In this document: positions 434 to 30,290 of the stretch, piece by piece
Layout of the letters: each line of letters opens with the position of its first letter
How positions within the stretch are numbered: position 1 is the stretch's first letter
From: an uncultured Methanosarcinales archaeon
GTDB lineage: Archaea > Nanobdellota > Nanobdellia > Woesearchaeales > GW2011-AR9
Reading direction: 5' to 3'
Assembly (NCBI GenBank): GCA_964360115.1
Contig: CAYHVV010000001.1
Coordinates: 1 to 36,197 of the forward strand
Length of the DNA: 36,197 bases
Translations under genes and position numbers: made by a program
Notes under the pieces: model-generated
What the model saw: only the letters and a program-made list of their open reading frames with translations
The model's database searches: none
Told to the model about the DNA's origin: nothing

Positions 434-970
434 ATGGACGAATTATTCAAAAATAACACATATAAAATACTTGAACTGTTTATAAAATTTCCAACTAAAG
501 ACTTTTCGCTTAGGGGTCTTGCTAGAGAACTTAAGCTTAGCCATGCCACCATTCTCAATTATATTAACGAGTTACAAAAATTAGGCTTCATCAAAAAGAA
601 AGAAGTTACTCTTTATCCCACTTACTTTGCAAATACAGAAAACCAAAAGTACAAATTCTACAAGAAAAACTGGCTTATTTTCAAAATAACAGAATCGGGA
701 CTTATTGACTATATCCAAAAAGAAGCCTTACCCTCATCCATAATTCTTTTCGGAAGCGGAGCAAAAGCCACGTTTACCGAAAAAAGCGATATTGACCTAT
801 TTGTAGAATCGAATGAGGCAAAATTAAACCTCACAAAATACGAGAAAAAATTAAACCACAAAATTAACCTCTTGTTTGAGCAAAATATCAACAATCTCTC
901 TAAAGAGTTGCGAAACAATATTTTGAATGGTGTTGTTTTGTACGGTTTCATCAAAATTAACGGAGGATAA
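434..970 (+). CDS. wHTH + minimal nucleotidyltransferase (MNT-type) protein
   Basis: N-terminal wHTH-like segment LRGLARELKLSHATILNYINELQKLGFIKKK. Nucleotidyltransferase signature ILFGSGAKATFTEKSDIDLFV (G-S ... D-x-D). Stop is 2 nt before the start of the HEPN partner. Confidence 0.75.
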   Translation: MDELFKNNTYKILELFIKFPTKDFSLRGLARELKLSHATILNYINELQKLGFIKKKEVTLYPTYFANTENQKYKFYKKNWLIFKITESGLIDYIQKEALPSSIILFGSGAKATFTEKSDIDLFVESNEAKLNLTKYEKKLNHKINLLFEQNINNLSKELRNNILNGVVLYGFIKINGG

Positions 971-972
971 AA

Positions 973-1398
973 ATGGCAAATGAAATGAGCTGGAAAGAAT
1001 GTACTGATGAAAAAATTATTACCAAAACTGTTCCTGACGAAGAAAGAGCTAATCAAATGCTTCAAATGGCGAACTTACGTTTGAAATTCTGGGATAAGAA
1101 AATTGCTGATGAATTCAGTGTTCTCAAAGTAGAAGCCTACTACGACATCATTAAAGAGCTTATCTTTGCACATCTCTACAAGAATGGTTATAATTGCACT
1201 AATCATCTCTGTCTTATTGCTTACCTTAAAGAGAAGATGACAGATTTTGACTTTGAAATTCAGAAAATAGATGAATTACTCATAGTGAGAAATGACATCA
1301 ATTACAGAGGACTAATCATCAAGAAAGATTATCTTGAACGCAATGAATTGGAGTTCAAAAACATCATTAAACTACTGAAAGAAGAACTAGAGAAATAA
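973..1398 (+). CDS. HEPN-domain protein, partner of the MNT
   Basis: All-helical 141 aa protein directly coupled to a minimal NTase, the classic MNT-HEPN arrangement. It has the RNDINYRG motif, which is the R-x4-Y variant rather than the RNase-type R-x4-H. Confidence 0.6.
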   Translation: MANEMSWKECTDEKIITKTVPDEERANQMLQMANLRLKFWDKKIADEFSVLKVEAYYDIIKELIFAHLYKNGYNCTNHLCLIAYLKEKMTDFDFEIQKIDELLIVRNDINYRGLIIKKDYLERNELEFKNIIKLLKEELEK

Positions 1399-2953: not shown

Positions 2954-3337
2954 CTACTTTTTGGATTTGCTGTGCTTCAGCCACTTCTCAGATAACTTGA
3001 AAATAACAAAAAAAATGGGCAATAATAATATGAAGTGTATGCCTAAAAACAAAAATACGAAGTCTTTAGGATAGCCTTCAAGAAAATATCTTACCTGCAA
3101 TAAAACACTGACACATAAAGAAACCAATAAAGACCTGGTGAATAATTTTTTATTTCTGAATAATAAATAAGCGGTATATCCAATCACAGTTCCATAGATG
3201 ATTTTATTGATGAAATAGCGCGAGGGAACAGCATACTCCGAGCTCAATCCATGTATCAAATAGTCAAATCCGGCAAAGATCAGCACTACTGCAAGAATTA
3301 CAAAAAACAAAATGGAATAATAATATGTTTTATTCAT
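2954..3337 (-). CDS. Integral membrane protein (4 TM), unknown; coupled to the cupredoxin gene
   Basis: Hydrophobic helices throughout. Its ATG overlaps the upstream gene's TGA (ATGA on the minus strand at 3334-3337). Confidence 0.55.
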   Translation of the reverse strand: MNKTYYYSILFFVILAVVLIFAGFDYLIHGLSSEYAVPSRYFINKIIYGTVIGYTAYLLFRNKKLFTRSLLVSLCVSVLLQVRYFLEGYPKDFVFLFLGIHFILLLPIFFVIFKLSEKWLKHSKSKK

Positions 3338-3708
3338 TCTACTACCACTTTACCTTTCATTGAAGGATGTATACCACAATGATAATCATAAGTGCCGGGT
3401 GTATTAAAAACATGTACATACGTATTTCCCTTTGAAATAGAATCAGAATTGATTTCATCTCCGGTATCAGAAACAATAGTATGCGGCGCAGAGTCCCTAT
3501 TTGTCCAAACAACACTTACTCCTTTAGATATAGTTAAAGTATTTGGATTAAAAGCGAAACCGTTTATCTCGATATCCATCTTAATTCCCAGATCTCCAGT
3601 AGATGGAGCAGCAGTTGGTTGTACTGGTGTTTTTTGCGCATAACAGCCGCTAACCGCTATAACTATTATCAAAAATCCAATAATAAATGTTTTTTTAATG
3701 TTAATCAT
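3334..3708 (-). CDS. Blue-copper (cupredoxin) lipoprotein
   Basis: Lipobox signal MINIKKTFIIGFLIIVIAVSGC. Copper ligands are HTIV ... YDYHCGIHPSMKGKVVV (His, Cys-x2-His-x2-Met). A GGAG RBS lies directly upstream. Confidence 0.8.
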   Translation of the reverse strand: MINIKKTFIIGFLIIVIAVSGCYAQKTPVQPTAAPSTGDLGIKMDIEINGFAFNPNTLTISKGVSVVWTNRDSAPHTIVSDTGDEINSDSISKGNTYVHVFNTPGTYDYHCGIHPSMKGKVVVE

Positions 3709-5229: not shown

Positions 5230-6468
5230 ATGATGAGAGGTAAAACATCACTGGTGTTGTTAGTAATTCTATTATTTGTAATAAGTTGTGCTCCTCAAGA
5301 ACTTTCCGATGAAGAACTGGAAAAAAAGTTAAGCAATTTATCTGATCAAGAACTTCAAGAGATTGTTAATCAAGGAAATGAAAAGGGAGCAATTGCCGGC
5401 CAAGCTTATTACAACGTAAAGTATGGGGCTTCTAATCAAAAAGTCTATAATTCAGCGAAGAATATTATGAATAAAAAGATTCCTAAATCGGAAGTTCCTT
5501 TGCCAGAAAAAATAATTAATTCTCCACCAGTTTTAAACTTCATAGGCAACAAACAAATCCAGAAAGGGGATTTATTGACTTTTACAGTTAGTGCAACTGA
5601 CGCTAATAATGATCCCTTAGTTTACAGTGCCCAAGTATTGCCTCTTGGTGCTAGTTTTGATGTAACCCTTCAGACTTTTAACTGGATTCCAGCTTACAAT
5701 CAGGTCGGTATTAATCCGATTACGTTTAAAGTAAGTGATGGGAAAAAAGAGGATGAAGAAACAATTAACATTACCGTTTTGGATTCTGTTGTTTTAAATT
5801 CTTGTGTGCCTAAACCAAATGGTTTAGTCGGCTGGTGGGATGGAGATAATGTTAGCGGAACGACTGCCTATGATTTGGTTGGAACACACCATGGAACTTT
5901 AGCTAATGGAGCTAAAATAGGTAAAGGTATGGTGGGAAATGCTTTTGATTTTAGTGGTAATAACGGCTATGTTGGTGTTGCGCATCATACAGACTTTAAT
6001 ATAGATTATAGCTGGTTTATTGATGCTTGGATAATGCCTTTATCATACCCTGCTCCCGGAAAAAGAGGAGCCATATTGATGAAATGGGTTGATGGTGGAG
6101 AAAACAAGGCCTTGGAGATTGGTTCTGATGGAAAAGTGTTTGTTACACTTGTAAATGTGCAAAAACAATCTGCTCAAGTATATTCAACTACTAATCTATT
6201 AATGAATCGGTTTACTTTCGTAGCTGCAAGTTATAATGGAACAGCTTTAAACTTATATATTAATGGTCAGCTTGATAACAGTCTTCCTTTATCAATAGAT
6301 GTTTCAGACTCTTATGGAACTTTTTATATGGGAAATCATCCAACAAGAGGTTCAGAATTTGTTCCTTTTGATGGCTTGATTGACGAAGTTGAATGGAGTA
6401 AAGAAGTTCCAACAGAACAGAAAATACTGGAATTATTTTCTTCTACTAGTAAAGGGAAATGTAAATAA
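5230..6468 (+). CDS. Secreted lipoprotein: cadherin/Ig-like domain + LamG (concanavalin-like lectin) domain
   Basis: Lipobox LLFVISC. Ig-like module PPVLNFIGNKQIQKGDLLTFTVSATDANNDPLVYS. LamG pattern LVGWWDGDN...GNAFDFSGNNGYV...LYINGQLD...FDGLIDEVEW. Confidence 0.7.
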   Translation: MMRGKTSLVLLVILLFVISCAPQELSDEELEKKLSNLSDQELQEIVNQGNEKGAIAGQAYYNVKYGASNQKVYNSAKNIMNKKIPKSEVPLPEKIINSPPVLNFIGNKQIQKGDLLTFTVSATDANNDPLVYSAQVLPLGASFDVTLQTFNWIPAYNQVGINPITFKVSDGKKEDEETINITVLDSVVLNSCVPKPNGLVGWWDGDNVSGTTAYDLVGTHHGTLANGAKIGKGMVGNAFDFSGNNGYVGVAHHTDFNIDYSWFIDAWIMPLSYPAPGKRGAILMKWVDGGENKALEIGSDGKVFVTLVNVQKQSAQVYSTTNLLMNRFTFVAASYNGTALNLYINGQLDNSLPLSIDVSDSYGTFYMGNHPTRGSEFVPFDGLIDEVEWSKEVPTEQKILELFSSTSKGKCK

Positions 6469-7665: not shown

Positions 7666-7932
7666 ATGGAAATAGCATTAACAAAAATGAGTTCGAAAGG
7701 ACAGATTGTCATCCCTTCACAGCTTCGAGAAGATATGAAAGAAGGAGAACAGTTAATTATTATCAGGAACGACCACCAACTTATTCTCAAAAAAGTAAGT
7801 GGGATGGATAAGAACCTGAAAGAAGATCTTGTGTTCGCCAAACGAACAGAAGAGGCATGGGAACGCTATGAACGTGGCGAATTTAAGACTAGCACTGCTA
7901 AAGACTTCTTGAAAGATCTTGAGAGATGGTAG
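7666..7932 (+). CDS. AbrB/SpoVT-family antitoxin
   Basis: MSSKGQIVIPSQLREDMKEGEQLIIIRNDHQLILKKV is a canonical SpoVT-AbrB swapped-hairpin motif. Overlaps the toxin gene by 7 nt. Confidence 0.85.
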   Translation: MEIALTKMSSKGQIVIPSQLREDMKEGEQLIIIRNDHQLILKKVSGMDKNLKEDLVFAKRTEEAWERYERGEFKTSTAKDFLKDLERW

Positions 7933-8177
7933 TTGAGACAGTTGATAGAGATTCGTACTTCGAGAAGCTTTTTTCTAAGTTAGATTCTAACCAAAAAGAG
8001 AAAGTCAAGACGCAGATTCGTAAGATTATTGAGAATCCAGAAATAGGGAAACCGATGCGGTATGCTCGAAAGGGAACACGAGAAGTGTATCTCAAATCTT
8101 TTCGACTTTCTTATACATATATTCCAGAAGAAAACAAGGTTATATTCTTAGACTTGTACCATAAAGACGAGCAATAA
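7926..8177 (+). CDS. RelE/ParE-family toxin
   Basis: IENPEIGKPMRYARKGTREVYLKSFRLSYTYIPEENKVIFLDLYHKDE matches the RelE/ParE pattern (NP..GK....G....fRl.Y.....v.....hr). Confidence 0.8.
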   Translation: MVVETVDRDSYFEKLFSKLDSNQKEKVKTQIRKIIENPEIGKPMRYARKGTREVYLKSFRLSYTYIPEENKVIFLDLYHKDEQ

Positions 8178-13026: not shown

Positions 13027-13599
13027 ATGTCGTTATACAAATACGTACGTGAAGCGTGGAGAAAACCACAACTAAATCATGAATTATGGCGAGAACGTCT
13101 TCTCAGCTGGAAACAAGAATCAGTAACCACAAAAATCGAACATCCCACTCGATTAGATAGAGCGAGATCACTGGGATACAAAGCTAAACAAGGATATATA
13201 TTGGTCCGTCAACGAGTTACTCGGGGAGGACACACCCGGCCAAAAATAAAAGGCGGTAGAAGGCCTAAACGCTTTGGAACTAGACTTACTTTACATAAGA
13301 GCTATCAAGTAATCGCAGAAGAAAGGGCTCAGAAGAAATATGAAAACTTAGTAGTCCTTAATTCCTATTGGGTTGCCCAGAATGGAGAATATTACTGGTA
13401 TGAAATCATCTTGGTTGATCCAGATCATCCGGTAATCAAGTCTGATCCAAAAATCAATTGGATTTCTGCCCAGAAGAACAGAAGCAGAGCATTCCATGGA
13501 ATTACTTCAGCTGGAAAGAAATCACGCGGTATGGGCGGCAAGGGAAAAGGGCATGAAAAAGCCAGGCCAAGCCGAAGAGCGCATTTGAGAACCCAGTAA
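13027..13599 (+). CDS. rpl15e: 50S ribosomal protein L15e
   Basis: MSLYKYVREAWRKPQ... and GYKAKQGYILVRQRVTRGG are canonical L15e. A ggagg RBS lies 10 nt upstream. Confidence 0.95.
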   Translation: MSLYKYVREAWRKPQLNHELWRERLLSWKQESVTTKIEHPTRLDRARSLGYKAKQGYILVRQRVTRGGHTRPKIKGGRRPKRFGTRLTLHKSYQVIAEERAQKKYENLVVLNSYWVAQNGEYYWYEIILVDPDHPVIKSDPKINWISAQKNRSRAFHGITSAGKKSRGMGGKGKGHEKARPSRRAHLRTQ

Positions 13600-13640: not shown

Positions 13641-13708
13641 GATTTTCTTTAAAATTTAAGTTCATTTTACGCAAATCTTTATATAGGTAGATTTCTTCAT
13701 TCAGATTG

Positions 13709-15133
13709 ATGTCAAAAAGAGGACAAGTAACGATTTTTATAATCATAGGTTTGCTAATCCTAATTATAACTGCAGGAATAATTTATGTTTCTAATACCAC
13801 AGTTACGGAAGAGCTTAAGATTGAAGAAACTAGCCCGTTTAAGGCAGACTTTTTTGTTTCTTTTGTAGACAACTGTTTAGAAAAAAGTGTCATTGATGGG
13901 ATGTACTTAGTTTTTTCACAGGGAGGTTATTATGAATTTACTCCGGAACCTGAACTGTTTGATCAGGTAGATGAACAAATAATTTCATTTCCCCCTAGTT
14001 TAGGAATTAATGTTTTTGCAGTAGAAGGTGAGAAAGAAGTAGAAAGTGAAAAAGAGGCTTTGCAAGTTCCAGTGTATTTCCAAAATACTAAAGCTAATCT
14101 GCCTGCCATTACTAGCATAGAAAGAGAAGTAGGAAAAGCTTCAAGAAGTTTTTTTCTTTCCTGCATAAATGGTTTTGAAAGTTTTAAAAAAGAAAATTAT
14201 AATATAGATGCCGGCAGCCCTGAGATTAAAGTTGCTTTTGCTGAAAAAATGTTAGTAGAGTTAAATTACCCCTTAAAAATAACTGGCGGCAGTAAAATCG
14301 CTGAACTTGAAACCTTTTCTACCGCCATTAACTTTAATTTTAAAGATAAATATGAAGTGATTAAAGAATATTTAAAAAAACAGGAAGAAGAACCAAATTA
14401 TTTTTTAATGGGTGAACTCTCTTCTTATGCTTATGAAAAAGATTTTGGTTTCGGATTTAAGCAGTTTGGCGATTCCGGAGCAGAAGTGTTAGTTGATTTT
14501 TCTTATGATGAAGAATTAAAACCGGAACCTCTGATTTACAGTTTCATTCTTTATTTTAATTGGACTGAACCAGTAGAGGAAGCCGAGTTATCTGGAGAAG
14601 AAGATGCAATCATCAATTTGGAAAGTATCCCTGCCTGGAACATCGATCAACCGGGCATTCATACTTACCAAGTGAAAGCTCTGGGAGAAGGTCTTACTTT
14701 CCATACTGATCCAAGAAGTCTGTCCATCGATCCTAAAACTGGACTAGTGACGATAGACACGAATGAATTCCCCAACGATGAATATTTATATTATGTTTTA
14801 GTTAGTGACCAATACGGACACGAAACTGTCGGGCCGATGTTCGTTAATGTAAATGTTAATGGCGGAACTTTGCCGATTATCAAGAAGATAGCCAAGCAGA
14901 CAGCAAAAATAGGAGAAGAATTTAATTATAAAATCGAAGTATTAAATGCCGGAAAAAACGTCGAGAATATTTTATCGTTCACTACTGATTCCTACTTGTT
15001 CGACCTGGATAAAAAAACGGGAGAGATCAAATTTATTCCTCAGCCAGAAGATAAAGGTCTTCATTCTGTCCGGGTAGATGTAGAGAACGAATTCGGGAAG
15101 ACTTGGCAGAGATGGGAATTGGAAATAAAATGA
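13709..15133 (+). CDS. Pilin-like (class III signal peptide) surface protein with C-terminal Ig-like domains, paralog of 17758-18774
   Basis: MSKRGQ|VTIFIIIGLLILIITAGIIYV has a short basic n-region, Gly-Gln, then a 20-aa hydrophobic stretch. The first 24 nt from the ATG are identical to those of 17758. Shared core FVDNCLEKSVIDGMYLVFSQGGYY. C-terminal Ig-like module LPIIKKIAKQTAKIGEEFNYKIEV. I prefer the ATG at 13709 over the track's TTG at 13706. Confidence 0.7.
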   Translation: MSKRGQVTIFIIIGLLILIITAGIIYVSNTTVTEELKIEETSPFKADFFVSFVDNCLEKSVIDGMYLVFSQGGYYEFTPEPELFDQVDEQIISFPPSLGINVFAVEGEKEVESEKEALQVPVYFQNTKANLPAITSIEREVGKASRSFFLSCINGFESFKKENYNIDAGSPEIKVAFAEKMLVELNYPLKITGGSKIAELETFSTAINFNFKDKYEVIKEYLKKQEEEPNYFLMGELSSYAYEKDFGFGFKQFGDSGAEVLVDFSYDEELKPEPLIYSFILYFNWTEPVEEAELSGEEDAIINLESIPAWNIDQPGIHTYQVKALGEGLTFHTDPRSLSIDPKTGLVTIDTNEFPNDEYLYYVLVSDQYGHETVGPMFVNVNVNGGTLPIIKKIAKQTAKIGEEFNYKIEVLNAGKNVENILSFTTDSYLFDLDKKTGEIKFIPQPEDKGLHSVRVDVENEFGKTWQRWELEIK

Positions 15134-17487
15134 TCAGCAGACAAAATAAACAAAATATTGGCACTAAAGATACCAAGATAAATTATTTTGTGTCTCTAAT
15201 GGTCTTGGTCTTAATGTGCACCTTTATTATTCTAGGTGTCTCCGCAGAAGATAATATCAATAATATTGATTGGAATAATCCGGAACAATTCAATGCTAAT
15301 TTTGAAAATGATCCCGTAGCTGCATTTTCTAACAATCCTGAAATGGTCTGGAACAAAATAGAAAATAATCCTCTCCTGCTTGCAGATAATGAACAAGTCA
15401 TGATCGCGGCATTCAACAATAATCAGGATAGGTTCTGGAGTCTTGTAAGTGTAAAAGGCAGCGATGTAATGAAAAACCAACCATTATGGGATTTCGCATT
15501 TAAGCAGGACCGGTTAAAAGCTGCAGGGGTAATAGAGAATAATCCGCACATCTTAGATGACTCTGTCCTTCTAGAAAAATTTGACTTAGAAATTTCTTCT
15601 CAGGAACTAAGAAACGGCAAAACCGGAGTAGAGATTATCAATGAAAATCCTAAAGCAAAGAAAACCTGGCTTGAAAAAAAATATGACTTGTTTACGGAAG
15701 ATATCATTGAAACAGGGGGAAAAATCAAGAACGCTGACATTCTCAAATACGATGGAAATAAAATCACTACCGGCGGCGCTGGCGGAGGAAAATTTACAGT
15801 TAAGGATGTCAAAGGAGCGAAAATCTTAACGGACGGTTCTTTGGAATTCAAAAATGCGGTAATCAAAGCTACCAAAAGTTTTTCTTTAAAAACAGATGAA
15901 TACGGAAATGATTATTATGGGATGGAAGCCGGAGAAGTTTATCTGGATGAGACGGTTAAGACATTCTCGTTAAAAATAAAAGATGGAAAAGTGTTCTCTT
16001 CAGGAAAAGGCTTGATAACTTATGATTGTTCTGATTGCGCTTTTGAAAAAGGGACAAGAATGGGCCAGTTTATCAAGTCAGAAGAGACTGGAGATCTGAT
16101 TACCGGTAAGTTTAAGCGCATAGGTCACTATCAGTTAGATTATACTTATCAAGCTGCAGTTGCCATGGAAGTAGATGGCGGAATATTTCAACAAGACGGT
16201 TCTAATCCGGAAGAGATGATCATTCTCGGAAAAACTAAATTGGTTAAGAAAGAAATAATTTTCGGCGATCCAAATAAAAATTATAAAACAACCCTGCCTG
16301 GAGACGGAACGATTATTAATATCGAAGGACCTAATACTGTTTATTATACCGAAAAAAAGAGCCGTGATGCTGCAACATTTTGTCCGAAAGATTTTGCTTG
16401 CATAGTTAATGTTCCCGGCCAGGAATACGGGGGAGCGTATCAGGAAAGATTAGCTTTCTTAAACGTGCAGGAAAATGATAAGATTTCTGTGAAAACTCCG
16501 GTTTATTATAATCGGGTTGAAGTTCTTGACCAAGTAGGCGGAGAAGTTACTTTTGCTTCCGTTAATAAAAGAAGCGGAACGGTCTTAGGAGAAATAAAAT
16601 CTGTTGCCGGAGAGAAACCAAAATTGGTTCGAGGCAGGCTGGAAGAAATAAAATCCGGAAGGTTTGATGTATTGGATAGTACGGATCCATATGAACCGCC
16701 GTTACTGCATCATTGGTCATCAAAAAAATTCCAGAAAGATCAGATTTATTTTATGAATAAGCGGGATCATTTTGCAACCTGCACTTACGGTGTTGATTGT
16801 GAAGAAGTGTTTGCAAAGGAATTCGGAAAAGTAATCGTACCAAAAGACAGAACTAAAAAGATTTCAACGACCATAATCGTTTCCGGCGATAACGCTAACA
16901 CTCCCTTAAGCATGTTAAGTTACTGCCAAAAAGAAGGGTGTTACATCGTCAACAGCAGAGATTCACCGCCGACAACTAAAAGCAGCAAGCTGGTTGTAAC
17001 CGGGCATCATAATGCCGGTTCTGATTATGTCTGGAGAGATCCTCCTGAAGTATTTAAAAAACATAACCCTATAGATAAACTTTACTTCAGCCCGGTTGAA
17101 GGAGGTTCACCTTTCGATTCGCTTCCTACGTCCAGCGCGGATGCGCAAAATCCGGTTGATTACGTTGCGTTCAGCGCCTGCAACACCGCAAACTCTTTTG
17201 ATTCACCAGATTTCGGGATTCTTCAGAAAAAATATCCTGACTTAAAAATCGTCCAGGGATGGAAAAATAAAGCGCCATTGCATGAAGCTATAAGTGATCT
17301 GCCTACAGGTATAGAAGAGATGGAAAAGCTGGCTCAGGGAAGCATAGTTAAAAACAAATACGGGGACAAAATAGGCGGTGAAAAATCTTGGTACATCAAA
17401 CAGGCCGATGGGACTTGGAAATGGACTAATGGCCGGGTAAATCCTCAACCCTTGGGTTCATCAAGTGAATTTTATGAAAATGTTTAG
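15130..17487 (+). CDS. Large secreted protein (785 aa): N-terminal region related to the giant protein, C-terminal caspase-fold-like module
   Basis: The ATG at 15130 overlaps the upstream TGA (ATGA), the same junction as at 18771. Signal peptide FVSLMVLVLMCTFIILGVSA|ED. The track's 15103 start would add 9 aa upstream of it. Confidence 0.7.
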   Translation: MISRQNKQNIGTKDTKINYFVSLMVLVLMCTFIILGVSAEDNINNIDWNNPEQFNANFENDPVAAFSNNPEMVWNKIENNPLLLADNEQVMIAAFNNNQDRFWSLVSVKGSDVMKNQPLWDFAFKQDRLKAAGVIENNPHILDDSVLLEKFDLEISSQELRNGKTGVEIINENPKAKKTWLEKKYDLFTEDIIETGGKIKNADILKYDGNKITTGGAGGGKFTVKDVKGAKILTDGSLEFKNAVIKATKSFSLKTDEYGNDYYGMEAGEVYLDETVKTFSLKIKDGKVFSSGKGLITYDCSDCAFEKGTRMGQFIKSEETGDLITGKFKRIGHYQLDYTYQAAVAMEVDGGIFQQDGSNPEEMIILGKTKLVKKEIIFGDPNKNYKTTLPGDGTIINIEGPNTVYYTEKKSRDAATFCPKDFACIVNVPGQEYGGAYQERLAFLNVQENDKISVKTPVYYNRVEVLDQVGGEVTFASVNKRSGTVLGEIKSVAGEKPKLVRGRLEEIKSGRFDVLDSTDPYEPPLLHHWSSKKFQKDQIYFMNKRDHFATCTYGVDCEEVFAKEFGKVIVPKDRTKKISTTIIVSGDNANTPLSMLSYCQKEGCYIVNSRDSPPTTKSSKLVVTGHHNAGSDYVWRDPPEVFKKHNPIDKLYFSPVEGGSPFDSLPTSSADAQNPVDYVAFSACNTANSFDSPDFGILQKKYPDLKIVQGWKNKAPLHEAISDLPTGIEEMEKLAQGSIVKNKYGDKIGGEKSWYIKQADGTWKWTNGRVNPQPLGSSSEFYENV
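16850..17300 (+). other. Candidate clan-CD (caspase/CHAT/CPD-like) cysteine protease module
   Basis: KLVVTGHHNAG (His codons at 17005-17010) is followed 58 residues later by DYVAFSACNTAN (Cys codon at 17179-17181). The His-then-Cys order, hydrophobic strands before each residue and small residues after each match the caspase-hemoglobinase fold pattern. Confidence 0.4.
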
Positions 17488-17498
17488 GAAGAGATTTA

Positions 17499-17532
17499 TA
17501 GAGAAGTTTGAATAATTCATAAAACTTCTCTA
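17499..17532 (+). terminator. Perfect 11-bp hairpin after the 785-aa gene (possible terminator or processing site)
   Basis: tagagaagttt (17499-17509) pairs with aaacttctcta (17522-17532) across a 12-nt loop. No strong T-run follows. Confidence 0.35.
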
Positions 17533-17654
17533 AGAGACTGTGAAATGGCGGAATTTTCCCCTTAAATAAAATTTACTATTATCAAAAATTCCTTTTTTCA
17601 AAGTTCTCTATGGATAAATTCTTAGATTAGATCAGGCCAAAATGGGGTTAACCC

Positions 17655-17734
17655 TCGGGTCGTTCGTTCAGACCCTGACTATTCCCTTGACATTTTCTCC
17701 GCTTCTTAACCAGCAAAATAGTCAGATTTAAATA
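17655..17734 (+). promoter_or_regulatory. PAR copy 3, with its TATA box 23 nt upstream of the ATG of the giant-gene operon
   Basis: ctcgggtcgttcgttcagaccctgactattcccttgacattttctccgcttcttaaccagcaaaatagtcagatttaaata. Inverted repeat 17675-17683 / 17717-17725. There is no SD before the ATG at 17758, suggesting a leaderless transcript. Confidence 0.75.
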
Positions 17735-17757
17735 CATTTTAATCTTATTTCCTTCTG

Positions 17758-18774
17758 ATGTCAAAAAGAGGACAAGTAACAATCTTTTTAGTAGTGGGTA
17801 TAGTCATTTTACTCTTAGCAGCGTTGTTCTTTTACCTCTTCGGCCAGATGAAAGAAGCGCCGTTGCAAGTGGAAGCAAAGGAAACCGGAGAAGCGCCCAG
17901 TACGCGAGGAGCTTTACAAATATATGTTGAAAATTGTATCGAAAAAACCATTGATCCAGCAACATATTTACTAGCACTGCAGGGCGGGATAATTTATCCG
18001 GATGAAAGTAACAAAATTCTGCTAACTGATTATGGCGTTGTTAATTATGCCTGGTTGAATGGTGCGCAAGGAATTTCCCGCGCTAAAATGGAAGAAGATC
18101 TTGCAGCATATTTGGAAGAATATATTCCTTCGTGTTTAGGTAATTTTGAAACATTTGTCACTCAAAACATTTTAGTTGAATCGGATTTTAATAATGTTCA
18201 AGCAAAGATTTCTATTAAGGAAAATACCATCAATGCAAACTTAGATCTGCCGCTTAAAGTAAATCTAGCTGATGGAGATAAATTGGAATTAGATCATTTT
18301 TCAGCAATGGTGCGTAGCAGCTTAGGTAAAATGCTTACTTCTATTGAAAAATTAAAGTTTCCAATTATAACCCCTTCCGATTTGGTTAACCTTCCGTACC
18401 AATCAACGATATTCCCCTTTGATGAAGCAGTTACCATTTACTCACTAACTGAAGAGAATCAAGAAACTCCGTTATCATTTATGTTTGCAGTTCGTAATGA
18501 TCTTCCCGAGAATAAAGCTCCTTCATTGCATTATATTGCTGACAAGACTTTTCGCGTAGGAGACGTATGGAAAGAAGTATTGACTGCAGAAGACCCTACC
18601 AATGACTTGTTAGAATTTTCTTCTGATTCCAGTTTATTTCCCATTCAAAAAGATGGAACCATTGACGTACAGATAACTCAAGCAGGAGAATTTGAAGTTA
18701 CTTTTAGCGTTAATGATCATCAGGCCGGGGAAGATGAACAACTAGTTACAGTTACAGTGGTGAATAAAGAATGA
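17758..18774 (+). CDS. Pilin-like (class III signal peptide) surface protein, paralog of 13709-15133
   Basis: MSKRGQ|VTIFLVVGIVILLLAALFFYL. Shared core YVENCIEKTIDPATYLLALQGGIIY. C-terminal Ig-like module APSLHYIADKTFRVGDVWKEVLTAEDPTNDLLEFSSDS. Confidence 0.7.
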   Translation: MSKRGQVTIFLVVGIVILLLAALFFYLFGQMKEAPLQVEAKETGEAPSTRGALQIYVENCIEKTIDPATYLLALQGGIIYPDESNKILLTDYGVVNYAWLNGAQGISRAKMEEDLAAYLEEYIPSCLGNFETFVTQNILVESDFNNVQAKISIKENTINANLDLPLKVNLADGDKLELDHFSAMVRSSLGKMLTSIEKLKFPIITPSDLVNLPYQSTIFPFDEAVTIYSLTEENQETPLSFMFAVRNDLPENKAPSLHYIADKTFRVGDVWKEVLTAEDPTNDLLEFSSDSSLFPIQKDGTIDVQITQAGEFEVTFSVNDHQAGEDEQLVTVTVVNKE

Positions 18775-21700
18775 AACCAGTAACTAGAAAAACTATTGTT
18801 ATGGGGTGTGTTTTTCTCTTCCTAGCGAGTCTTTTTGCTGTTGCCCAGGAGTTTCCAGAAACGAATAACCCGCAGGGGCAATCTCCTTATGATCAATTTT
18901 CCAGCAATCCGAATTTATGGACCACGGATAATTTCAATAAGCTCAGTCCAGCAGATCAAGGACAATTTTTAGCAACTAATTACCGCGCAGATTTGGCGCT
19001 GGAATATTACAAAAATCAAAATAACGTCGGCTTGAATAAGATAGTAGATTTAAAATATTTTGCGGATAAAAATAACTTAGGGAAAAATCCAGCTGCTGAT
19101 GATAAATTTTATTCGAGCACTTATACCACTGCAACGCTGACGAGCTTGCGTGATTTCCTGCAGACAGGACTGGAACAGAAAGAGGCTGCTGCACAATATT
19201 TCACTCAAAAGTTCAATACTCCTTATACCTTTGAAGAAGTAGATGAAGATTTTCAATATGATGCTCAAGCAGGAACATTGACCAATGGTAAGAAAACTAT
19301 CAGTTTAAGTGAGTTCAAAGGTGATTCAGCTATCCAAGGGATTATTTCTATCGCAGACGGGTTTAAAATTATCCGGAAAGAAGAACAAGAAACACAGGAA
19401 ATTTCCGTGCAGGGTGATGGAGAGAGAAAAATTCAATATGATGCCCAGAAAGGAAATTTATTATTCAGAGACACACAGGGAAAAGAACAAAGCTTTGATA
19501 TCACTGCTGCAGAACCAGTTCATCTCGATTTTTATCAGGATGGAACTTTAGAGATAGAAGGGCCTGTTTCGGGAACAGTTAATCTTGATAACGAACATAA
19601 GTTCGCAGAATTCAGAAACAGACAGGGAAAATTAGTTATCTATTTCAACGGCGACTTTGAATCAAGAGATGCATTAATAAAAACAGCAAAACTCTACCTC
19701 AATGGACGATTTGAATATAATAAAGAAAAAAACAAAGTAGATGCTTACGATGTGATGAGCAATGATAGAAAAACTATCATTGTTGACAAAGATTCACGCG
19801 TAGGTGCAAAGACACAGGGACAGATTAAAGGAAAAAGTACTTTAGAGATATATCTTTCTAAAGTTTCCGAACACTCAGAATATTTTGTCAAACCTGGTGC
19901 AGCTGAAGAACAGCCGACCGTACAAGAAGTCATTGACAACTTACAGAAGGTTAGACCACCACAAGGAGACGTTGGAAATAACGCAGAAGTATTCATCAGG
20001 AAAAATGCTGAAACTGGAAAAACAATTATTACTTCAAAAGGAAAAGTAGAGATTGGTTTTTATGATGTTGTGAGCGGAAGCATTTCGCGTTCTGAAACTG
20101 AGCCGCACTTTATAGGTGTAAACGGAATTTCTGAGTTTGATTATTTAGGTGCGCCACAGAAACAAATAAACATTCGAGGAAAAGCAGTGTACTCGGATGA
20201 ACAGTACAGCCAGATTGATACACAACAAAATGGCGCTTCTCTCAAGATAATAAAGAATGATTTTGATGATGTTATCCATTCAGGATGTTTTGATTGTGAA
20301 ACTGGATCAACTGCGCTAAGCATAGGCAAACAAGTTGCGACGGCATTACAACAAGGAGATACGTTTACTGAACCTCAGTTTAAAACAATTAGCATCTCTG
20401 CAACAGTTAAAGATAAAGGCCTCGAATATGATTGGGATACGTTTCTTAACAATATGGGTTCTCTTGCAGGCTCAAAAACAGAGGGACAACAAATAATTTT
20501 AGGAAAAAATTTACTATTGAAAAGTATAACCTGTGAAGGTACAAAACAGTGTGATTTCATGCTGGCCAGAGATCAGCAATCAGGAGTAACTTCTGCTTTT
20601 TATGAAGTATACGACCCAGAGACAAATAAAGCAGGTAGAAGAGTTACTATTCCAACTAATATCGGTGAAACCATGGGTAAAGTGACCCTACTCACTTCTA
20701 CTGAGAATTTACAAAAACTACAACAGATTCAAACCTTAATTGAACAACGAAGATATGGGGAAGTTTCAAATTTATTAAAAAATGAACCGTTTGAAGAAGA
20801 TCCTGCTTTGCGCCAGCATCTTCTGAAAACTACGGGAATTGATCTACAACAATTAAATAATCCAGAATACACTCAAAAGCTCAATGAGATAAATAATTAT
20901 TATTCTGATGCACACACAAAAATAAAGACATTACGGGATAGTTATGGAATTAATCTAGATGAAAAAGGTGTGCCTGTATCGACAGAAGATCAGCAAAAAC
21001 TGAACGAAATCTTAAACAAAAAACGCAGTGGGAATGAAATAGCCGCATTTGACTTATACAGCGGAGCAAGAGTTGATTTAGCCCGAGCAGAGAATGAGCA
21101 AGTAGAAGCAATGCATCAATCCTGCGCTGGAAATGCGTATTGCCCCGTAGGAGATGAAGATGTCAAAGCCGCTCAGCAGAAAGTAATTAATGAAGTTCTA
21201 AGAAGAGAAAAATCTCCAGAGGGAATCCAATGGCGGCAAAACTTCGAACTGCAGAAGGAACAAAAAGAACAGCAGAAAGAAGTAGAACTATTAGCCGATA
21301 AATTAGCTGATGCTCAGAAATTAGGTAAAAAAAGAGATGCTACTGAACGTACCTTGACACGTGATCAAGCAGTTCTTGCTAAAACTATTCAAGATCTAAA
21401 TGAGCAGGAAGCAAAAGTACTGAGACTTGAACAAGAACGGAAAGAGAAGGAAAAAAGTATTCAGTTCAGAGATGTTTTGAATGTTGTATTTACGCTAGGC
21501 GAAGGAATTGAACAAGATTTAGATTTGCAGAGAAGTGCTGAAGAATTAGCAAAGAAAGAACTTACCACGCTGGAACTACAGGAATTTAGTTTACAAACTA
21601 GGATTAAAAACGGAAAGGAAGGCCTTAAAAAAATAAATGAAGATATCAACGATCTCACTCTCAATTTCAAAGAACCCACCTCTAAATTAGCATTATTAAG

Positions 21701-24700
21701 CGCCTCTGGCGATGATGAAACCGTCGGCATGATGATACATAATTCTGACTTGCCTTCGGCTAAGAAGGATGAATTATACCAAACTTACCTTGGTTCTGAT
21801 GTAAGCAAGCGCCTTAAAGAAATTAGCGCGGATCAGTCTGTTTCGAATTATGACGAAAAACAAAAACAAATGCTTGACATTATCGGCACCGGAAAAATGA
21901 CACTTAAACGAGCGCAAAATTATGCTGAGCAATACGGTGATATCGGCGGATCAAAAGTAGTTTTAGATCATGTTAAAGCTACTAGACCTGATTTGGTTGA
22001 TACACCAGAATGGAGAACGGCGCAAAATGCTTATGATGCGGCAGTCGATAACCAAATAGCAGAGTTACGACAGGTTGCAGAACAAAATCTTCGGGAAAAA
22101 ATGAAACTCAGTGATGGAACAGAGTCCAGCATTTTTGGTGATAAAAATTCTATTGCTGATTGGACTTTATCTAAGTTGGGTGCCGCGGCTGAAAGCGTGG
22201 GTTCAGGAATACGTTCTGCGAGTTTTAATGCTGTTGCCGGAACACTCGCAGTCGCGGGAGGAGCTTCTTATTTAGTCGGCGCGGAAGAAACAGGAACCAA
22301 TTTATTAGATACAGCGACGGCATTGCATACTTTTGATGATGTGAAGAAGCAGCAAGCAAATGCAGAATTAAGATTACTGGATCAGCAAATAAAATCCTAC
22401 GACAAAGTGCAGGAAATAATTGCAAATGCTCGTCTAAGTGGGAAAGAACCAGATACTGCACTTATCCAGAATGCATTTAGAACCCAAGCACCAATTACTA
22501 ATTTAGCAAAACAAATGGAAGGAAAGGAATTAACGGTAGATGACCAAGCGCAAGCAGCATTGTATAATGTTGAACAATCCGCATTGGTTGCTGGCGGAGA
22601 TGAATTAGTAAAGAATCAATATATCGCCATTCGAGAAGAGTTTGCTGGTAAAAGCGAGGTTGCAGATATAGCAAAAGAAAGAGTACTTAAAGCGGAACAA
22701 CGTGCAGAAGGTTCCTTCTTAACTAACGAACAACTTGGCCTTTATGGAGATGCGTTGATTGATGTTTCTGTTGATGTAACAAATATCATTCCCGGGGTTG
22801 TTTTTGTCAAAGCCGGCAAAGCAGTTGCAAAGTTTGCTGAAGTTACTAAGATTGCTGGAGCTGCCTCTAAAATAGGTCATGCGATAGATGTTGTTAAAGA
22901 TGCAGGTAAATTATTAACTGTATCAAAAGATGCGCGATTGGCTTTGAAAGCAGCAAAGGCAGAATTGTATGCGGCGCAAGTAACTAAAGGGTTAACTGCT
23001 GTAGAAAGAACTGCAGAGATTGCTCGAGCAGAACAGAAAATAAACTTGGCTAGGCAAGCTGTTGAAGGAGAATATCGTGCCAGTAAGGTTGGTCGAGTAA
23101 CAAATGTATTATCTACGCCTGTCTCTTCTGATCTTAGAGCCATAGAAAAATTAAAGTTGGCGACTCAAGATGAACAGTTCAAAGCGGCGCAACAGTTACA
23201 GGCCGCCAGAACAGCAGAAGAAGTGCAAACCGCTCAGGAGGCATATAAAGTTGCTACACAAAGAGTCAGTGATATTGAAAAAACAAAAGAAGCATATTCT
23301 TTAGCGGGTTCATATACAGGTGGTGTAACTTGGTTAGGAAAAGAACGCGCCGTTGGTCCTGGTGCAAAGAAAGCACAACAAGCTCTTGATGAATTTCAGC
23401 AAGCCAGAGAAGCGTATCATGTAGAAAAGATTGCTTTTGGCGCAGATAAAGTATCAGCTGAAACTGTCGAGAATATTATCAAGACTGCAAAAGCAGCAGA
23501 AGAGGCATCATTTGAGAACAGGCTTTCCAATACCATTAAGGGCGCAATCGGTGCGCAGCGAGTTGAAAGAAATGTAGAAAAACTCAAAGCAGCTAAAGTT
23601 GGACTTTCATTTACTGATGATGGTAAACTTGTTGCAGAAGGGTTACAAACCGGCTCTGAAGAAGCCAAATTGGTTGAACAAACTAATAAATTGCTGGATG
23701 AAGATACGGTCATGCGGCATCTTGTTGGCGAAGATGCTAAACGTATCGCAACTCCAGAAGATATCCCGCAACCGCCGCGGAAATTATCCGAACAAGAATT
23801 TGATGAGTTAGATTTACTTGACAAAGAACTTGAAGCGCGAGGAGCTACCTATCATCTTAATGATCAAGACCAAGTAGAGATAAGTATTAATGATGTTGTA
23901 ACTGAAAATGTTGAAGATTTAGAATTATTAAAACAAAAAGCGCAGAGAGCACAACAATTATTTGATGAGGCCGATAAGGAAGATTTGATCAGGCAAACAC
24001 GAGCAAGGATAAATGCAGAAAATGTACTTTCTGATAATGATTTACAGGATGTTGCTGCTCAAGTAAAGAAAGATCTAACTGCTAAAACAAAAGGAGAAGT
24101 TGACGCTGCAGTTATCCCAGAAGTTGCTGGTGAAAAAGCTGCAGAACTGCCTAAACCTCTTGCTGCTAGAGAAACTAGAATAGCAACAGGTGATGATATC
24201 CCGAGACCGGAAGCGATTGAAGAAGCAATTGATTCCAGAACAGCAGGAACCTATTCCATACTCAAGACAGTTCAGCAAGAAGGAAAAGCGCCAACAGTTC
24301 GCGGGTTAGACCATCTCCCAGCGGATATAACTGCAGAAGAAAACGCTCAGCGAGTCTTGGCAAGTGTACCTGAATCAGGCACTACTGTGAGATTAGAAAC
24401 TCTCAATGGTAATATCGAAGAAGGCAAAGTTCTTGCAGCAAATGATAATGGCATAGTCTTAGAGCAAGCAGGAAGACAAAAAACTATTCCCGCTGATAAA
24501 GTAGATACAGTCACGGTTACTGAAAAAGCACCGATAGAAAAGCAAGGAGTTTCTGATGTGGTCGAACCCTGCACTCTCGCTGCCGCTGCGATATACGGAT
24601 TGGCTCCCTGTAATCCTAGTGAAGCTACTAAACTGCCTGCAGAAATTTCCGGCGAGAGAGAAATTGCAGAAAAAGCACCTTCCGTTTCTGAAGAAGAGCA

Positions 24701-27700
24701 ATTTGTACCCGAAGTATCCACCGTCGTAGAAAGACCAGCAAATCTGCGAAGTGAAGGAGCAACTGTCGTTCAACTTCCTGGACGTTCTATAGCAGCAGAG
24801 TCTGTTGAAGTTCCAGCTCAATTAGATATAACTCCTGCCACTATAGATGATATAGACATAATTGTTAATGATCAGATACCACGTACAAAATTAGCTGAGA
24901 GTGAAGCAGCAGCCCTGACTGCAAATAGAGAATATTTTATCGGTCGGGGTGGAGAAGCAATAGTAATAACTGATCCAGAAAATCCAAATTTTGTATATAA
25001 AATAAAACACACCACTAGTCCTGAAGTTGCAGAAACAGCAAATTCTTTCCCTGATGCTAGAACATATTTAGATGCTCTTGGTGAGCATGGCGCAAAAGTA
25101 GATTGGGCAAATACTAATACTATGCGCATCGAGAATTTAAAAGCTTCTGGACACCAACAATTAGGAGACGCGATATTTAACAGCTTGTCACCGGAACAAA
25201 GAGCATTGTATGTAGCGGATGGAACTACTGCTGCGCAAAGACGGATTTTACGAGAACAAGCATTTAGACAAATGACTGAGGAAGAATTTCAAGCGTTTAA
25301 TCAGGCCTTTGATGAGTTTGCTGAAACAGCAACCAAACAGGGAATAAAAATTGGCGATACAGGAATAGATAATATTTGGGTAGGACCGGAAGGATTTACC
25401 GACGGAGTAAAGTTTAAAATTTCTGATGCTGGGGTTGCTCATCAAGTTACTGATCGCAATGCTCTGCGGCAATTTTATCAGCGCAGGAAAGCAGAATTAA
25501 TATCTGGTGACTCTGGCTATTTAGTCACGGGCGAAGATGCGATAGATCTGTATGAAGCTCGCGGATTAATCACTAAAGAAGAAGTGATTAAACTACGTAA
25601 TGAATTACCTGTTCCGGAAACGTTGCTTAAAGAAGTTGAAGAGATAGAATTGCCTTCTTGTTCTATCGGCGGTTCTTTTGTCGGACAAGCTGCAGCAGCG
25701 CCTTGTTTGCCAACTGGCGCGCCAAAAACAATAGATGATTTAGTTGAAGGAGAAAAATTCAGAGTGCGTTCAAAAAGCGGCAATTCCTATGCCGGCAGTT
25801 ATCTTCATACTGAAGGGGGTTTATTAAATTTCGAAACTGGAGAGGAGACAAAAAGATTCTTTGGATTACTGGGCACTAAAAAAGAAACAGGCACGTTGCG
25901 TGTTGAGCTGTTAGATCAAAGCAGTATTATCCGAGAAGGCGATCAAATAAGGATAACTTCCAATAGCGGTATTCCTTACGTCGGCAGATATGCCGGTGAA
26001 GATGCAGAATTCTTCCGGATTAAGTATCCAAATGGAGACACTCTGCGTTTTAAAAAATCTGACTTTAATCTGGATACTATCATCGGAGAAGGAGACGCAG
26101 TCACGCTCAGGAGCAAAAGCGGCAATAGTTATTCCGGACAGTATGTTTCGGAAGCTGACGGATACATCGTTCTCAGAGACGAAAGTGGAAATGCTTTCCG
26201 CTTGAGAAGCGAGATGGTGGATAAAACTTCCATCAAGACACTTGGAATGGAAGAACAATCCATCAAAAATAAAAATAAAGCTTTATTTGCAGATAAGGAA
26301 GAATTTCCTTCACGCCAAAGTAAAGATGTACATGCAAAAGATTTACCTTTTGAAAATGAACCTGCCCCGCGTAGAGTAATATATTCTCTTGAAGACAGGA
26401 TAATAGCAGAAGAACAAGGCCTTATTTTTGAAAATGTACCCTCTTCTAAACTTCCGCCAGGAACCTACACTTATGTTATATTAGAAGACGGGTCAATGGT
26501 GTTTGGAAAAGTAAGCAGTAATTTGGAATTTGGAGTTAAGCATGTCCATCTGGCTAACGGAAGGCCGGTCAAAGTTGCCGGAGAAGTAGCAATTGACGGA
26601 ACTGGAAAATATGTGTTTAATTTACGCAGCGGAACTTTTACTTACCCCCTACTTGACAGTAAATTTGAAAAGTTTAAACATCTGGGAAATGTGAAGGCAC
26701 GGGAAGAAGTTGCTAAATTTGAAAGAACACTGCAAAGAAATATGGACGAGTCTTTCAGTAATTATTTTGGCAGGAAAGGAGAGTTCACAAAAGATCCGGT
26801 TTTACCTAATCAGCCCTCACCGCTGGAAGAATTAGTAAACATTTGCGTAAGAGGCGCAGAGCTTAATATTCTCTCCTGCCAAGCTCCAGATATAAAAGTT
26901 TTAGTTGAGCAGAGAAGAGCAGCGATGGTTTCAGATGCAGTCAATCCTTGCAACATTGCTGCTGCTGCGATTCAGGGATTAGCTCCTTGTGTAACTAGTA
27001 CGGCTGAAATAATGCCTGAGGAACCTGCATTCGTAATTGAAACATCTGGTGTTGTAGAAAGGCCAGTAGAACTTCGTAATGAATTGCCTCTAACCGAAGA
27101 GGTAGTTCCTTCTTCAGAAAAGATTATTTCTGAATGGAGAATGAAAGCAAGAGAAGCACTTAATTCTCAAACGCCAATTGAAATCGGTGAAACTAAAGTT
27201 GTTTTTACTAGAACAGTTGATGACGAAGTTGAAAAGATTGAAGGAGTTCTAACCGCGAAGTATGATGCTAATAATTATTTTTCAATGCAGATAGTCGATT
27301 CTGAAACAGGAGATATTGTTGCTACTCACTACTACCATGTTCGTGGAAAAGAAATTTCAATATTAGAAACGAAGGTTAATCCTAACTATCAAGGAGCAGG
27401 AATGAATCAACAGATGTTCCAGTATATGTCTGATTTACATCCAGAAGCGGAAGTTATGGATACGCTAGTAGCCGGAACTAATTTAGAGGTGTATAAAGCA
27501 TCATTGCAGAAGGGATTAAGTCCTCTTGATGCAATAAAACAAACTCCTGCTTACAAAATAAGAAAAAATGCCGGTTGGGGAGAAATTGATCTTAAACAGT
27601 CAGTACTGCCCAAGTTAGAAGAACTCGAAGAAAGATCGCTTACTTTGATTTCTAAGAGGGAAAATCCGACGGGTGTTCTTCCTCCAGAATTTAAACGCAA

Positions 27701-30290: not shown

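Follow-up and report, generated by a model that had tools for sequence, protein, structure and literature searches.

The window analysed here is an entire contig of 36,197 bp (GenBank assembly GCA_964360115.1, contig CAYHVV010000001.1; GC content ~37%) from an uncultured archaeon of the Woesearchaeales, which carries two tandem gene pairs on its plus strand. The first pair comprises gene A (13709-15133, 474 aa), encoding an adaptor with a pilin-type signal, and gene AL (15130-17487, 785 aa), encoding its partner with a Sec-type signal; the second comprises gene B (17758-18774, 338 aa), a paralogue of A, and gene BL (18771-30290, 3,839 aa), encoding the giant partner of B, which has a Sec signal and lacks a C-terminal anchor. 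An earlier sequence-only reading of this DNA had described the locus as two tandem paralogous bicistrons; all four open reading frames (ORFs) were confirmed at their coordinates, their order recurs in relatives, and all four genes are real. The observation has become more solid and broader than that description, being a rule throughout the lineage, but also less symmetric, the adaptors alone being paralogous. We interpret the locus as two separately promoted 'adaptor + cargo' surface units, in which BL would be a polymorphic multi-effector protein presented or delivered to the host of a host-dependent DPANN cell, and we give this reading a probability of roughly one half. Searches of the literature brought up no account of the gene pair or of the BL family.

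Adaptor proteins A and B

A homologue search with A returned 49 relatives, and a genome scan using a 14-sequence alignment, together with contig look-ups, yielded 23 loci (L-numbers denote loci and P-numbers proteins of relatives). All relatives of A, AL, B and BL were found in metagenome-assembled genomes (MAGs) of 'Nanoarchaeota'/Woesearchaeota.

Both small proteins start with MSKRGQVTIF followed by a hydrophobic stretch of ~20 residues, as the sequence-only reading had noticed; the identical start of the two genes spans 23 nt and not the 24 nt it gave, position 24 being G in A and A in B. Over an 80-nt stretch that includes the gene start, the two units are 70% identical (repeat family D2). 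In protein A, the class-III-type signal (MSKRG↓QVTIF) and hydrophobic helix (aa 1-32) are followed by a variable linker, an α/β core (aa 46-282) with invariant C56, G72-G73 and C152, and two immunoglobulin (Ig)/cadherin-like modules (aa ~300-474). Protein B has the same signal and α/β core, with one Ig-like module (aa ~250-338). Alignment of the pair, a check that the sequence-only reading had itself proposed, was significant (BLASTP E = 2e-10 for the N-terminal ~200 residues and E = 2e-4 for the Ig module), so that the small proteins are paralogues. On sequence comparison, A and B are true members of one lineage-specific family, whose alignments show F10, C56, G72, G73, Y123 and C152 to be invariant. 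The predicted CxEK...QGG core is real, with C56 and G72-G73 invariant across 25-30 family members. Each member has a novel α/β core braced by disulfide bonding and zero to two Ig-like modules, and the motif KRGQ(V/I)T(I/V)F is nearly invariant among proteins that are otherwise only 24-30% identical.

The AlphaFold2 model of full-length A (pLDDT 80.8) consists of a membrane helix (aa 4-31), a low-confidence linker, the α/β core and two β-sandwich modules. Foldseek matched the β-sandwich modules with cadherin/Ig structures (E about 1e-10), and weak Pfam He_PIG/Big_9 matches were detected in the C-terminal modules of A and B, which bears out the Ig-like modules suggested from the sequence. The full-length model matched only Ig/cadherin entries, and the core was therefore re-predicted alone, giving a model with pLDDT of 83.8 and pTM of 0.73.

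Class III signals follow a FlaFind-type rule ([KRDE][GA][ALIFQMVED][ILMVTAS]x3), in which a short charged N-terminus ending in Gly or Ala precedes a hydrophobic stretch of ~20 residues. A rule of this kind was fitted by 40 of the 49 A/B family members, the remaining nine being truncated gene calls, and it was matched by 28 of the 254 ORFs of the loci, 27 of them family members. The class-III-type signal that had been proposed for the small proteins is therefore upheld. According to previous studies, the substrates of Methanococcus EppA have a short signal ending in Gly (-1), with Gln at +1 and Glu at +5 (PMC3875500). The A/B family has Gly at -1 and Gln at +1 almost without exception, and Phe in place of Glu at +5. 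We regard A and B as proteins in which a class III signal is joined to a new head domain; in principle, modular minor pilins and bindosome proteins offer a comparison. A doubled signal motif was also observed in two adaptor genes of relatives (L009 3478-4836 and L017 4949-6004, MQKRGQIKLSSDRRGQITVF and MSKRGQVQSASPLGKSGQVTVF), which could reflect either duplication of the cleavage site or an alternative start further upstream.

Pairing with large secreted partners

At all 16 A-AL junctions examined, an A-type gene (431-475 aa) is directly followed by an AL orthologue (~700-920 aa), and ten loci have a giant gene of up to 4,731 codons after one of B type (320-351 aa), B-type orthologues lying 5' of giants in L003, L005, L009, L011, L012, L017, L018, L020 and L021. 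Three distant family members (the third copy of L009, P0046 and P0048) are followed by genes for Sec-type-signal proteins of 553, 948 and 543 aa, respectively, which have no similarity to AL, BL or one another. Thus, in each of the about 29 loci examined, a gene for a large Sec-signal protein lies immediately 3' of the family member, and this holds for partners of unrelated sequence too. Genomes vary in carrying A-AL alone, B-BL alone or both, and the A-AL pair is present twice in L002, where it was apparently duplicated as a whole. In the window, the archaeal/eukaryotic ribosomal protein L15e gene (rpL15e, 13027-13599; Pfam E = 8.6e-72) precedes gene A, and in closer relatives the adaptor-cargo locus also adjoins this ribosomal protein gene; the pairing holds where the rpL15e synteny is lost.

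Both AL and BL have a Sec-type signal peptide and no further hydrophobic segment, in line with the large signal-peptide proteins of the sequence-only reading, and the coupling it described between each small protein and a large secreted one recurs throughout. Because the pairing is invariant although the cargoes are unrelated, the small protein would be a dedicated adaptor or anchor for the exported protein encoded after it. A correlation between the pairwise identities of A and AL (r = 0.75) was not used as evidence of co-evolution, since it is explained by shared phylogeny.

The ATG of each large gene overlaps the TGA of the adaptor gene in an ATGA junction (15130-15133 and 18771-18774), as had been read. 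Each unit is preceded by a TATA-like box on the plus strand that was read from the sequence: TTTATATA (13678-13685), located after a T-rich stretch that follows the rpL15e stop, and TTTAAATA (17727-17734), with the same spacing, each centre lying 27 nt 5' of the ATG of A or B. Archaeal TATA boxes are located about 26-27 nt upstream of the transcription start, and the presence of one box per unit suggests two independent, probably leaderless transcripts. TTTATATA is the probable promoter of the first unit, whose transcript would be leaderless or near-leaderless, and TTTAAATA is the probable promoter of the second. Just past the AL stop, at 17488-17530, there is a 10-bp inverted repeat (AGAGAAGTTT...AAACTTCTCT), with a T-run ~60 nt further, which may be a terminator between the units.

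AL and its candidate active site

The AL family is conserved from end to end, with a mean column identity of 31%; homologue searching with AL itself gave only four proteins. Short-range Cys pairs are invariant at 418/424, 551/557 and 599/604, and the putative catalytic region (aa 599-685, 16924-17184, plus strand) contains invariant CxxxxC, RD, GHH and SxCN, corresponding beyond the third Cys pair to R610-D611, G625-H626-H627 and S682-x-C684-N685. Fourteen AL sequences share the motifs LVVTGHH (H626) and VAFSACN (C684) unchanged, and C684 is their lone unpaired invariant Cys. A His followed by a Cys, each placed after a hydrophobic strand, is the pattern of clan CD peptidases, and the same order occurs in sortases. 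Given the invariant His and the lone invariant Cys, the C-terminal domain of AL is a candidate Cys/His enzyme, and AL may be a cysteine peptidase.

The stretch containing this gene was also found in a second assembly from the same population (L001 1441-3825, 99-100% identical to 15103-17487 of the window), where the AL gene is split into ORFs of 559 and 226 aa by a frameshift or stop variant or by an assembly error. A stretch of the window also has an identical counterpart in a Hainich groundwater metagenome.

The two large proteins had been described as sharing similar N-termini and a Cys pair, and neither likeness held up. Homology between AL and BL was rejected after negative comparisons of the N-termini by BLASTP (E = 0.29) and by profile-profile hhalign with 14 AL and 6 BL N-termini (probability 5.8%). 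The supposed common Cys pair was rejected, since AL C300/C303 (DCSDC) occurs in the two closest AL sequences only and is not conserved, whereas BL C506/C509 is invariant in 11 proteins of the BL family. The likeness that remains is a compositional flavour and NPxxxF/L-type motifs after the signal peptide. The W motif of BL (described below) was likewise considered at the C-terminus of AL, and a hidden Markov model built from 31 W copies matched none of the 14 AL sequences. No test run showed AL and BL to be related, and paralogy therefore does not cover the complete bicistrons: the tandem paralogy proposed earlier holds for the small proteins (E = 2e-10) and fails for the large ones. Similarly, a conserved N-terminus with a variable C-terminus describes BL, with its shuffled modules, but not AL, which is conserved over its whole length.

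BL, a giant mosaic protein

The first part of BL (aa 27-900, 18849-21470) is conserved in a family of giant proteins (sub-regions N1 and N2), has invariant Cys pairs at 506/509, 588/594 and 785/791, and would probably dock to B. It is followed by a region rich in Ala, Glu, Leu and Lys and poor in Pro (aa 901-1926, 21471-24548), which is partly conserved in P0059 and P0072 and, judging from its composition, is probably an extended α-helical stalk. The remainder (aa 1927-3839) consists of five modules parted by junctions around a Cys-bounded Gly/Ala loop, all encoded on the plus strand.

The first junction, J1 (aa 1927-1995, 24549-24755; repeat family D1), reads SDVVEPC-TLAAAAIYGLAP-C followed by an acidic, Pro-rich tail, and leads to the protein-kinase-like module M1 (aa 1996-2296, 24756-25658). 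J2 (aa 2297-2312, 25659-25706; C-SIGGSFVGQAAAAP-C), whose loop has an identical copy in P0055, is followed by M2a (aa 2313-2500, 25707-26270), with internal repeats of ~50 aa (RVRSKSGNSYAGSY...), and by the toxin-like M2b (aa 2501-2726, 26271-26948). J3 (aa 2720-2788, 26928-27134; SDAVNPC-NIAAAAIQGLAP-C plus tail) precedes the GNAT-acetyltransferase-like M3 (aa 2789-2975, 27135-27695), which is followed by the W motif (aa 2976-3040, 27696-27890; G.KYY....G.WKQ.RSFWFDK, repeat family D8). After J4 (aa 3049-3123, 27915-28139; SDVVDPC-VIAGGAIQGLAP-C plus tail) come the protein-kinase-like M4a (aa 3124-3340, 28140-28790) and M4b (aa 3341-3545), which has an internal 56-aa helical repeat and, together with the second copy of the W motif (aa 3550-3606), occupies 28791-29588. 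J5 (aa 3618-3634, 29622-29672; C-SLAAGAIIGGAIAGP-C) separates these from M5 (aa 3635-3839, 29673-30287), a C-terminal domain that P0055 also has.

J1, J3 and J4 are closely related repeats of ~70 aa (E = 4e-12 to 2e-7), with a 62-nt core that is 71-74% identical at the DNA level (D1). At every module boundary there is a hydrophobic, Gly/Ala-rich loop closed by two Cys residues (24567-24611, 25659-25706, 26949-26990, 27936-27977 and 29622-29672, corresponding to aa 1933-1947, 2297-2312, 2727-2740, 3056-3069 and 3618-3634). Such loops recur in other giants, and their composition recalls viral fusion peptides; a processing site, a membrane-inserting element and a recombination joint are candidate roles.

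Pfam searches with all four proteins and ten sub-segments gave nothing significant for direct identification, and a PDB sequence search with BL was negative. Comparison by alignment and by profile gave the following module identities. In M4a, the GEG loop (aa 3162-3164), Lys3184, Glu3209, Asp3283 and Asp3309 are all invariant and stand in the canonical kinase order of Gly-rich loop, ATP-binding Lys, αC Glu, catalytic-loop Asp and metal-binding Asp; its profile matched ABL1 (E = 3.7e-5) and CDPK2 (E = 1.7e-4) in PDB, and the best 60 of 341 PDB matches (E < 10) were all protein kinases. For M1, the invariant positions are the G-loop G2060, Lys2077, the catalytic D2196...N2201 and the DxG Asp2219, and its profile found Ser/Thr kinases only, weakly (best E = 1.4e-3). 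By these sequence criteria, M4a is protein-kinase-like and M1 more weakly kinase-like. M3 matched Pfam Acetyltransf_CG (E = 0.029), and all 19 of its PDB profile matches were GNATs (best E = 1.2e-3).

An exhaustive HMMER search with BL aa 1927-3123 gave 226 relatives, of which 150 were listed. The M2b domain of ~100 aa is present in at least 125 copies among these 150 listed matches, in proteins of 91 to 5,672 aa, and 106 of the 125 copies among the matches listed lie within 120 residues of the C-terminus. Its motif (Y.YVI..DG..FG....E.GVKH.HLA.GR.V.AGE....G...N..SGTF...C..F..N..C) includes conserved E, KH, GE, N and SG positions and a terminal Cys pair, and its profile had no Pfam, NCBIfam or PDB sequence match. 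The placement is typical of polymorphic-toxin domains, and M2b is a candidate new toxin domain.

Eight giants (P0056, P0059, P0060, P0061, P0068, P0069, P0072 and P0074) share the N-terminus of BL and combine the same modules in differing order and number, frequently joined by the same loops. The Pfam HopA1 effector domain was found in two of these giants (E = 2.5e-18 and 9e-19) and is absent from BL here. The analogy with polymorphic toxins drawn in the sequence-only reading thus suits BL. No cassette-like ORFs were seen downstream of the gene.

Neighbouring genes

The flanking genes of the contig are ordinary, including genes for CorA, a Na+/H+ exchanger, a CBS protein, archease, cupredoxin, toxin-antitoxin pairs, a metallophosphoesterase and a PLD-family protein, and no component of a type-IV filament is among them. 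The PLD-family gene (31803-32462) encodes 219 aa with a single PLDc_2 domain; orthologues adjoining the same locus in relatives have 324-361 aa and two domains. The shorter copy here may have been truncated or have become a pseudogene, and a link with the unknown genes on the opposite strand (32489-34703) is conceivable. The gene at 31043-31762 encodes a Cys-rich protein of 239 aa with no Pfam match, whose N-terminus (MSKRGKKVVIAILLLACFFFLLSC) resembles a lipobox and not a class III signal. The gene has conserved counterparts beside the adaptor-cargo locus of L002, L006 and L010 (41-49% identity).

Upstream, 5230-6468 encodes a secreted protein with a He_PIG/Big_9 Ig domain, which resembles the Ig module of B (BLASTP E = 4e-5), and a lectin-like Laminin_G_3 domain. 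The minus-strand gene at 34741-36171 encodes a large protein that is rich in Cys and has a transglutaminase-like core (DUF553, E = 9e-5; GDCED motif); it may be another surface or host-interaction enzyme. In two relatives, genes for YkuD-type L,D-transpeptidases are located directly 3' of the cargo gene (L002 13481-14275 and L021 18485-19333); these genes are unexpected in archaea and could be related to a bacterial host wall. Two small toxin-antitoxin-like pairs were also observed in the window (434-1398 and 7666-8177), the kinds being a helix-turn-helix nucleotidyltransferase with a partner lacking assignment, and a MazE-type antitoxin with a ParE-type toxin. A similar nucleotidyltransferase pair sits between both adaptor-cargo units in L003.

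Proposed function and alternative explanations

From the sequence features, we propose that the TATA box of each unit drives a separate, probably leaderless transcript, and that the cargo gene would be co-transcribed and, in this genome, translationally coupled to the adaptor gene through the ATGA overlap. The N-terminal helix would insert A or B in the membrane; a class III signal peptidase would probably trim the protein after Gly5, a position suggested by the strict conservation of KRG↓Q(V/I)T(I/V)F. The exported cargo would then be held at the surface by binding to the adaptor core or the Ig modules; we infer this tethering because the gene pairing is invariant and the cargoes are otherwise unrelated. 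The adaptor might stay in the membrane, in the style of bindosome proteins, or be incorporated as a minor, tip-type subunit of a type-IV filament. AL would act at the surface as a conserved and probably enzymatic protein, His626 and Cys684 being its candidate active site. BL would be a stalked multi-effector, whose kinase-, GNAT- and toxin-like modules could be exposed to, or delivered into, a host on contact, possibly after processing at the junction loops.

An extended form of this model would make the A/B family a new archaeal system for contact-dependent delivery, a DPANN counterpart of MARTX and polymorphic toxins. The adaptor would mount the giant on a filament or on the surface, the Cys loops would insert or be processed, possibly being cut by an AL-type enzyme, and kinase, acetyltransferase, HopA1 and toxin modules would be released singly into the host. 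In this complete form, we consider it unlikely.

Several results count against the adaptor-cargo interpretation, and many of them concern the pilin character of A and B. Residue +5 of the family is Phe (the invariant F10) and not Glu; Sulfolobus and Haloferax pilins are also found without Glu at this position (PMC3875500). A Pfam scan of 30 family members returned no model of a pilin or class III signal, only Ig-like families being significant and DUF7287 being seen once at E = 0.04. For the core of A modelled alone, no significant match was found in PDB (Foldseek best E = 0.024, TM about 0.1) and none in BFVD, and no pilin was among the meaningful Foldseek PDB matches, so that the core does not show the pilin fold, in which a long N-terminal helix packs on a head of β-sheet or β-sandwich type. 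In the A model, a variable low-confidence linker (aa 32-45) parts the membrane helix from the globular head, an arrangement that suggests a tethered anchor more than the packed α1 helix of a pilin. Genes for a prepilin peptidase, a pilus ATPase or a platform protein were found neither on the 36-kb contig nor on any fetched locus. As for the cargoes, AL had no match in Pfam or PDB profile searches, its candidate enzymatic role being read from motifs, and the assignments of M1 as a kinase and M3 as a GNAT are weak (E about 1e-3). No processing protease was recognisable in BL with Pfam, nor was there an RTX match, and no immunity gene is located directly 3' of BL, the next gene (30321-30926, opposite strand) encoding a metallophosphoesterase. 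Finally, the ATGA overlap is kept at only 8 of 16 A-AL junctions and ~4 of 10 B-BL junctions, the others having gaps from a few to ~110 nt. The fixed stoichiometry of adaptor and partner, which had been put forward from the two overlaps in the window, is thus not a conserved feature; co-transcription is likely, and translational coupling is not a conserved requirement.

The core fold unlike any pilin, the flexible linker after the membrane helix, the missing match to Pfam pilin models and the lack of type-IV-filament genes nearby would all suit a simpler explanation, namely that A and B are plain type-II membrane proteins with an uncleaved signal anchor, which would tether or chaperone the large proteins at the membrane with neither pilin processing nor a filament. 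However, a simple anchor has no need of a motif such as KRGQ(V/I)T(I/V)F, which is almost invariant in proteins of 24-30% identity and agrees with the G(-1)/Q(+1) pattern seen in known class III substrates. We regard this explanation as doubtful, and it survives better than the other alternatives.

The gene pairs might instead be merely neighbouring cell-envelope genes beside rpL15e, such as genes for wall proteins or proteins associated with an S-layer, with no specific partnership between them, and BL might be a structural adhesin. This would agree with the ribosomal-gene position conserved in closer relatives, with the many Ig-like and repeat elements and with the lack of an immunity gene. 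The pairing nevertheless survives both the loss of the rpL15e synteny and the change of cargo, the pair was duplicated as a unit in L002, and enzyme-type modules (kinase- and GNAT-like), a C-terminal toxin-like domain and HopA1 in relatives are not what this explanation would predict for BL, and we consider it unlikely. The least probable alternative is a pseudopilus-type export aid (like a type II secretion piston or an S-layer-priming device) that would assist the large Sec-exported partner in crossing or entering the cell envelope without staying bound to it, for although the class-III-type N-terminus and the invariant pairing with very large, sequence-unrelated exported proteins would fit it, one adaptor per cargo and adhesin-type Ig modules suit a stable surface complex better, and no gene for an assembly ATPase or platform is located nearby.

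The interpretation as adaptor-cargo surface units bears on DPANN archaea, whose attachment to and manipulation of hosts are largely unknown and for which no effector-delivery system has been defined. An adaptor gene with KRGQ(V/I)T(I/V)F followed by a large Sec-signal gene provides a signature for finding host-interaction candidates across the Woesearchaeales, and the giant family contains shuffled eukaryote-like kinase, GNAT, HopA1 and toxin-like modules that resemble effectors. Three of the building blocks, namely the fold of the adaptor core, M2b and the Cys-loop junction, have no database match.

Comparison with known systems

Previous studies showed that bacterial type IVa pili carry tip complexes of minor pilins and PilY1, for example in Myxococcus xanthus, where pilin-like partners display a large adhesion protein (PMC7541494). 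The present locus is similar in that a pilin-type gene adjoins a gene for a large non-pilin protein that has a standard Sec signal and lacks its own anchor. It differs in that neither sequence nor Pfam comparison links it to PilY1 or to a minor pilin, that each cargo has one adaptor where the bacterial system has a set of four pilins, that the adaptor core is unmatched in PDB, that it belongs to an archaeon and that the locus has no machinery genes. The modular pilins PilB and PilC of Streptococcus sanguinis (PMC8179133, PMC9934059) also combine a pilin-type N-terminus with grafted modules, which are Ig/cadherin-like here and could bind ligands or partners. Unlike in these pilins, the module beside the helix of A is no recognisable pilin domain, and the best match to PilB covered 44 columns (E = 0.36). 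The bindosome proteins of Sulfolobus (bioRxiv 10.64898/2026.04.22.720090) likewise carry a class III signal and helix on a non-pilin globular domain; A and B, in contrast, are not solute-binding proteins, have no adjoining ABC transporters and have a dedicated giant secreted partner.

On the side of BL, a conserved N-terminal part with recombining C-terminal domains is shared with polymorphic toxins (Zhang et al. 2012, PMC3482391), systems reported to be rare in archaea (PMC3482391), and M2b recurs at the C-termini of many otherwise unrelated proteins, as toxin domains of such systems do. However, the modules of BL are arranged in series and not as one C-terminal toxin, neither an adjacent immunity gene nor spare cassettes were found, and the modules are of host-manipulation types (kinase, GNAT, HopA1) rather than nucleases or deaminases. 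MARTX toxins resemble BL in being giant secreted polypeptides with an effector array and repeated linkers, in sets that are shuffled (between strains in MARTX). BL differs from them in having a Sec signal and no RTX repeats or type I secretion, no recognisable C80 cysteine protease domain, linkers built around Cys-bounded Gly/Ala loops, and the pairing with a pilin-like adaptor. Since the defining features of each of these systems are partly present and partly missing, the locus is not assigned to any of them. If the link between adaptor and cargo is true, the principle of the 'pilin as carrier' would extend to archaea, and polymorphic multi-effector proteins would occur in a domain where such systems have been deemed rare (PMC3482391).

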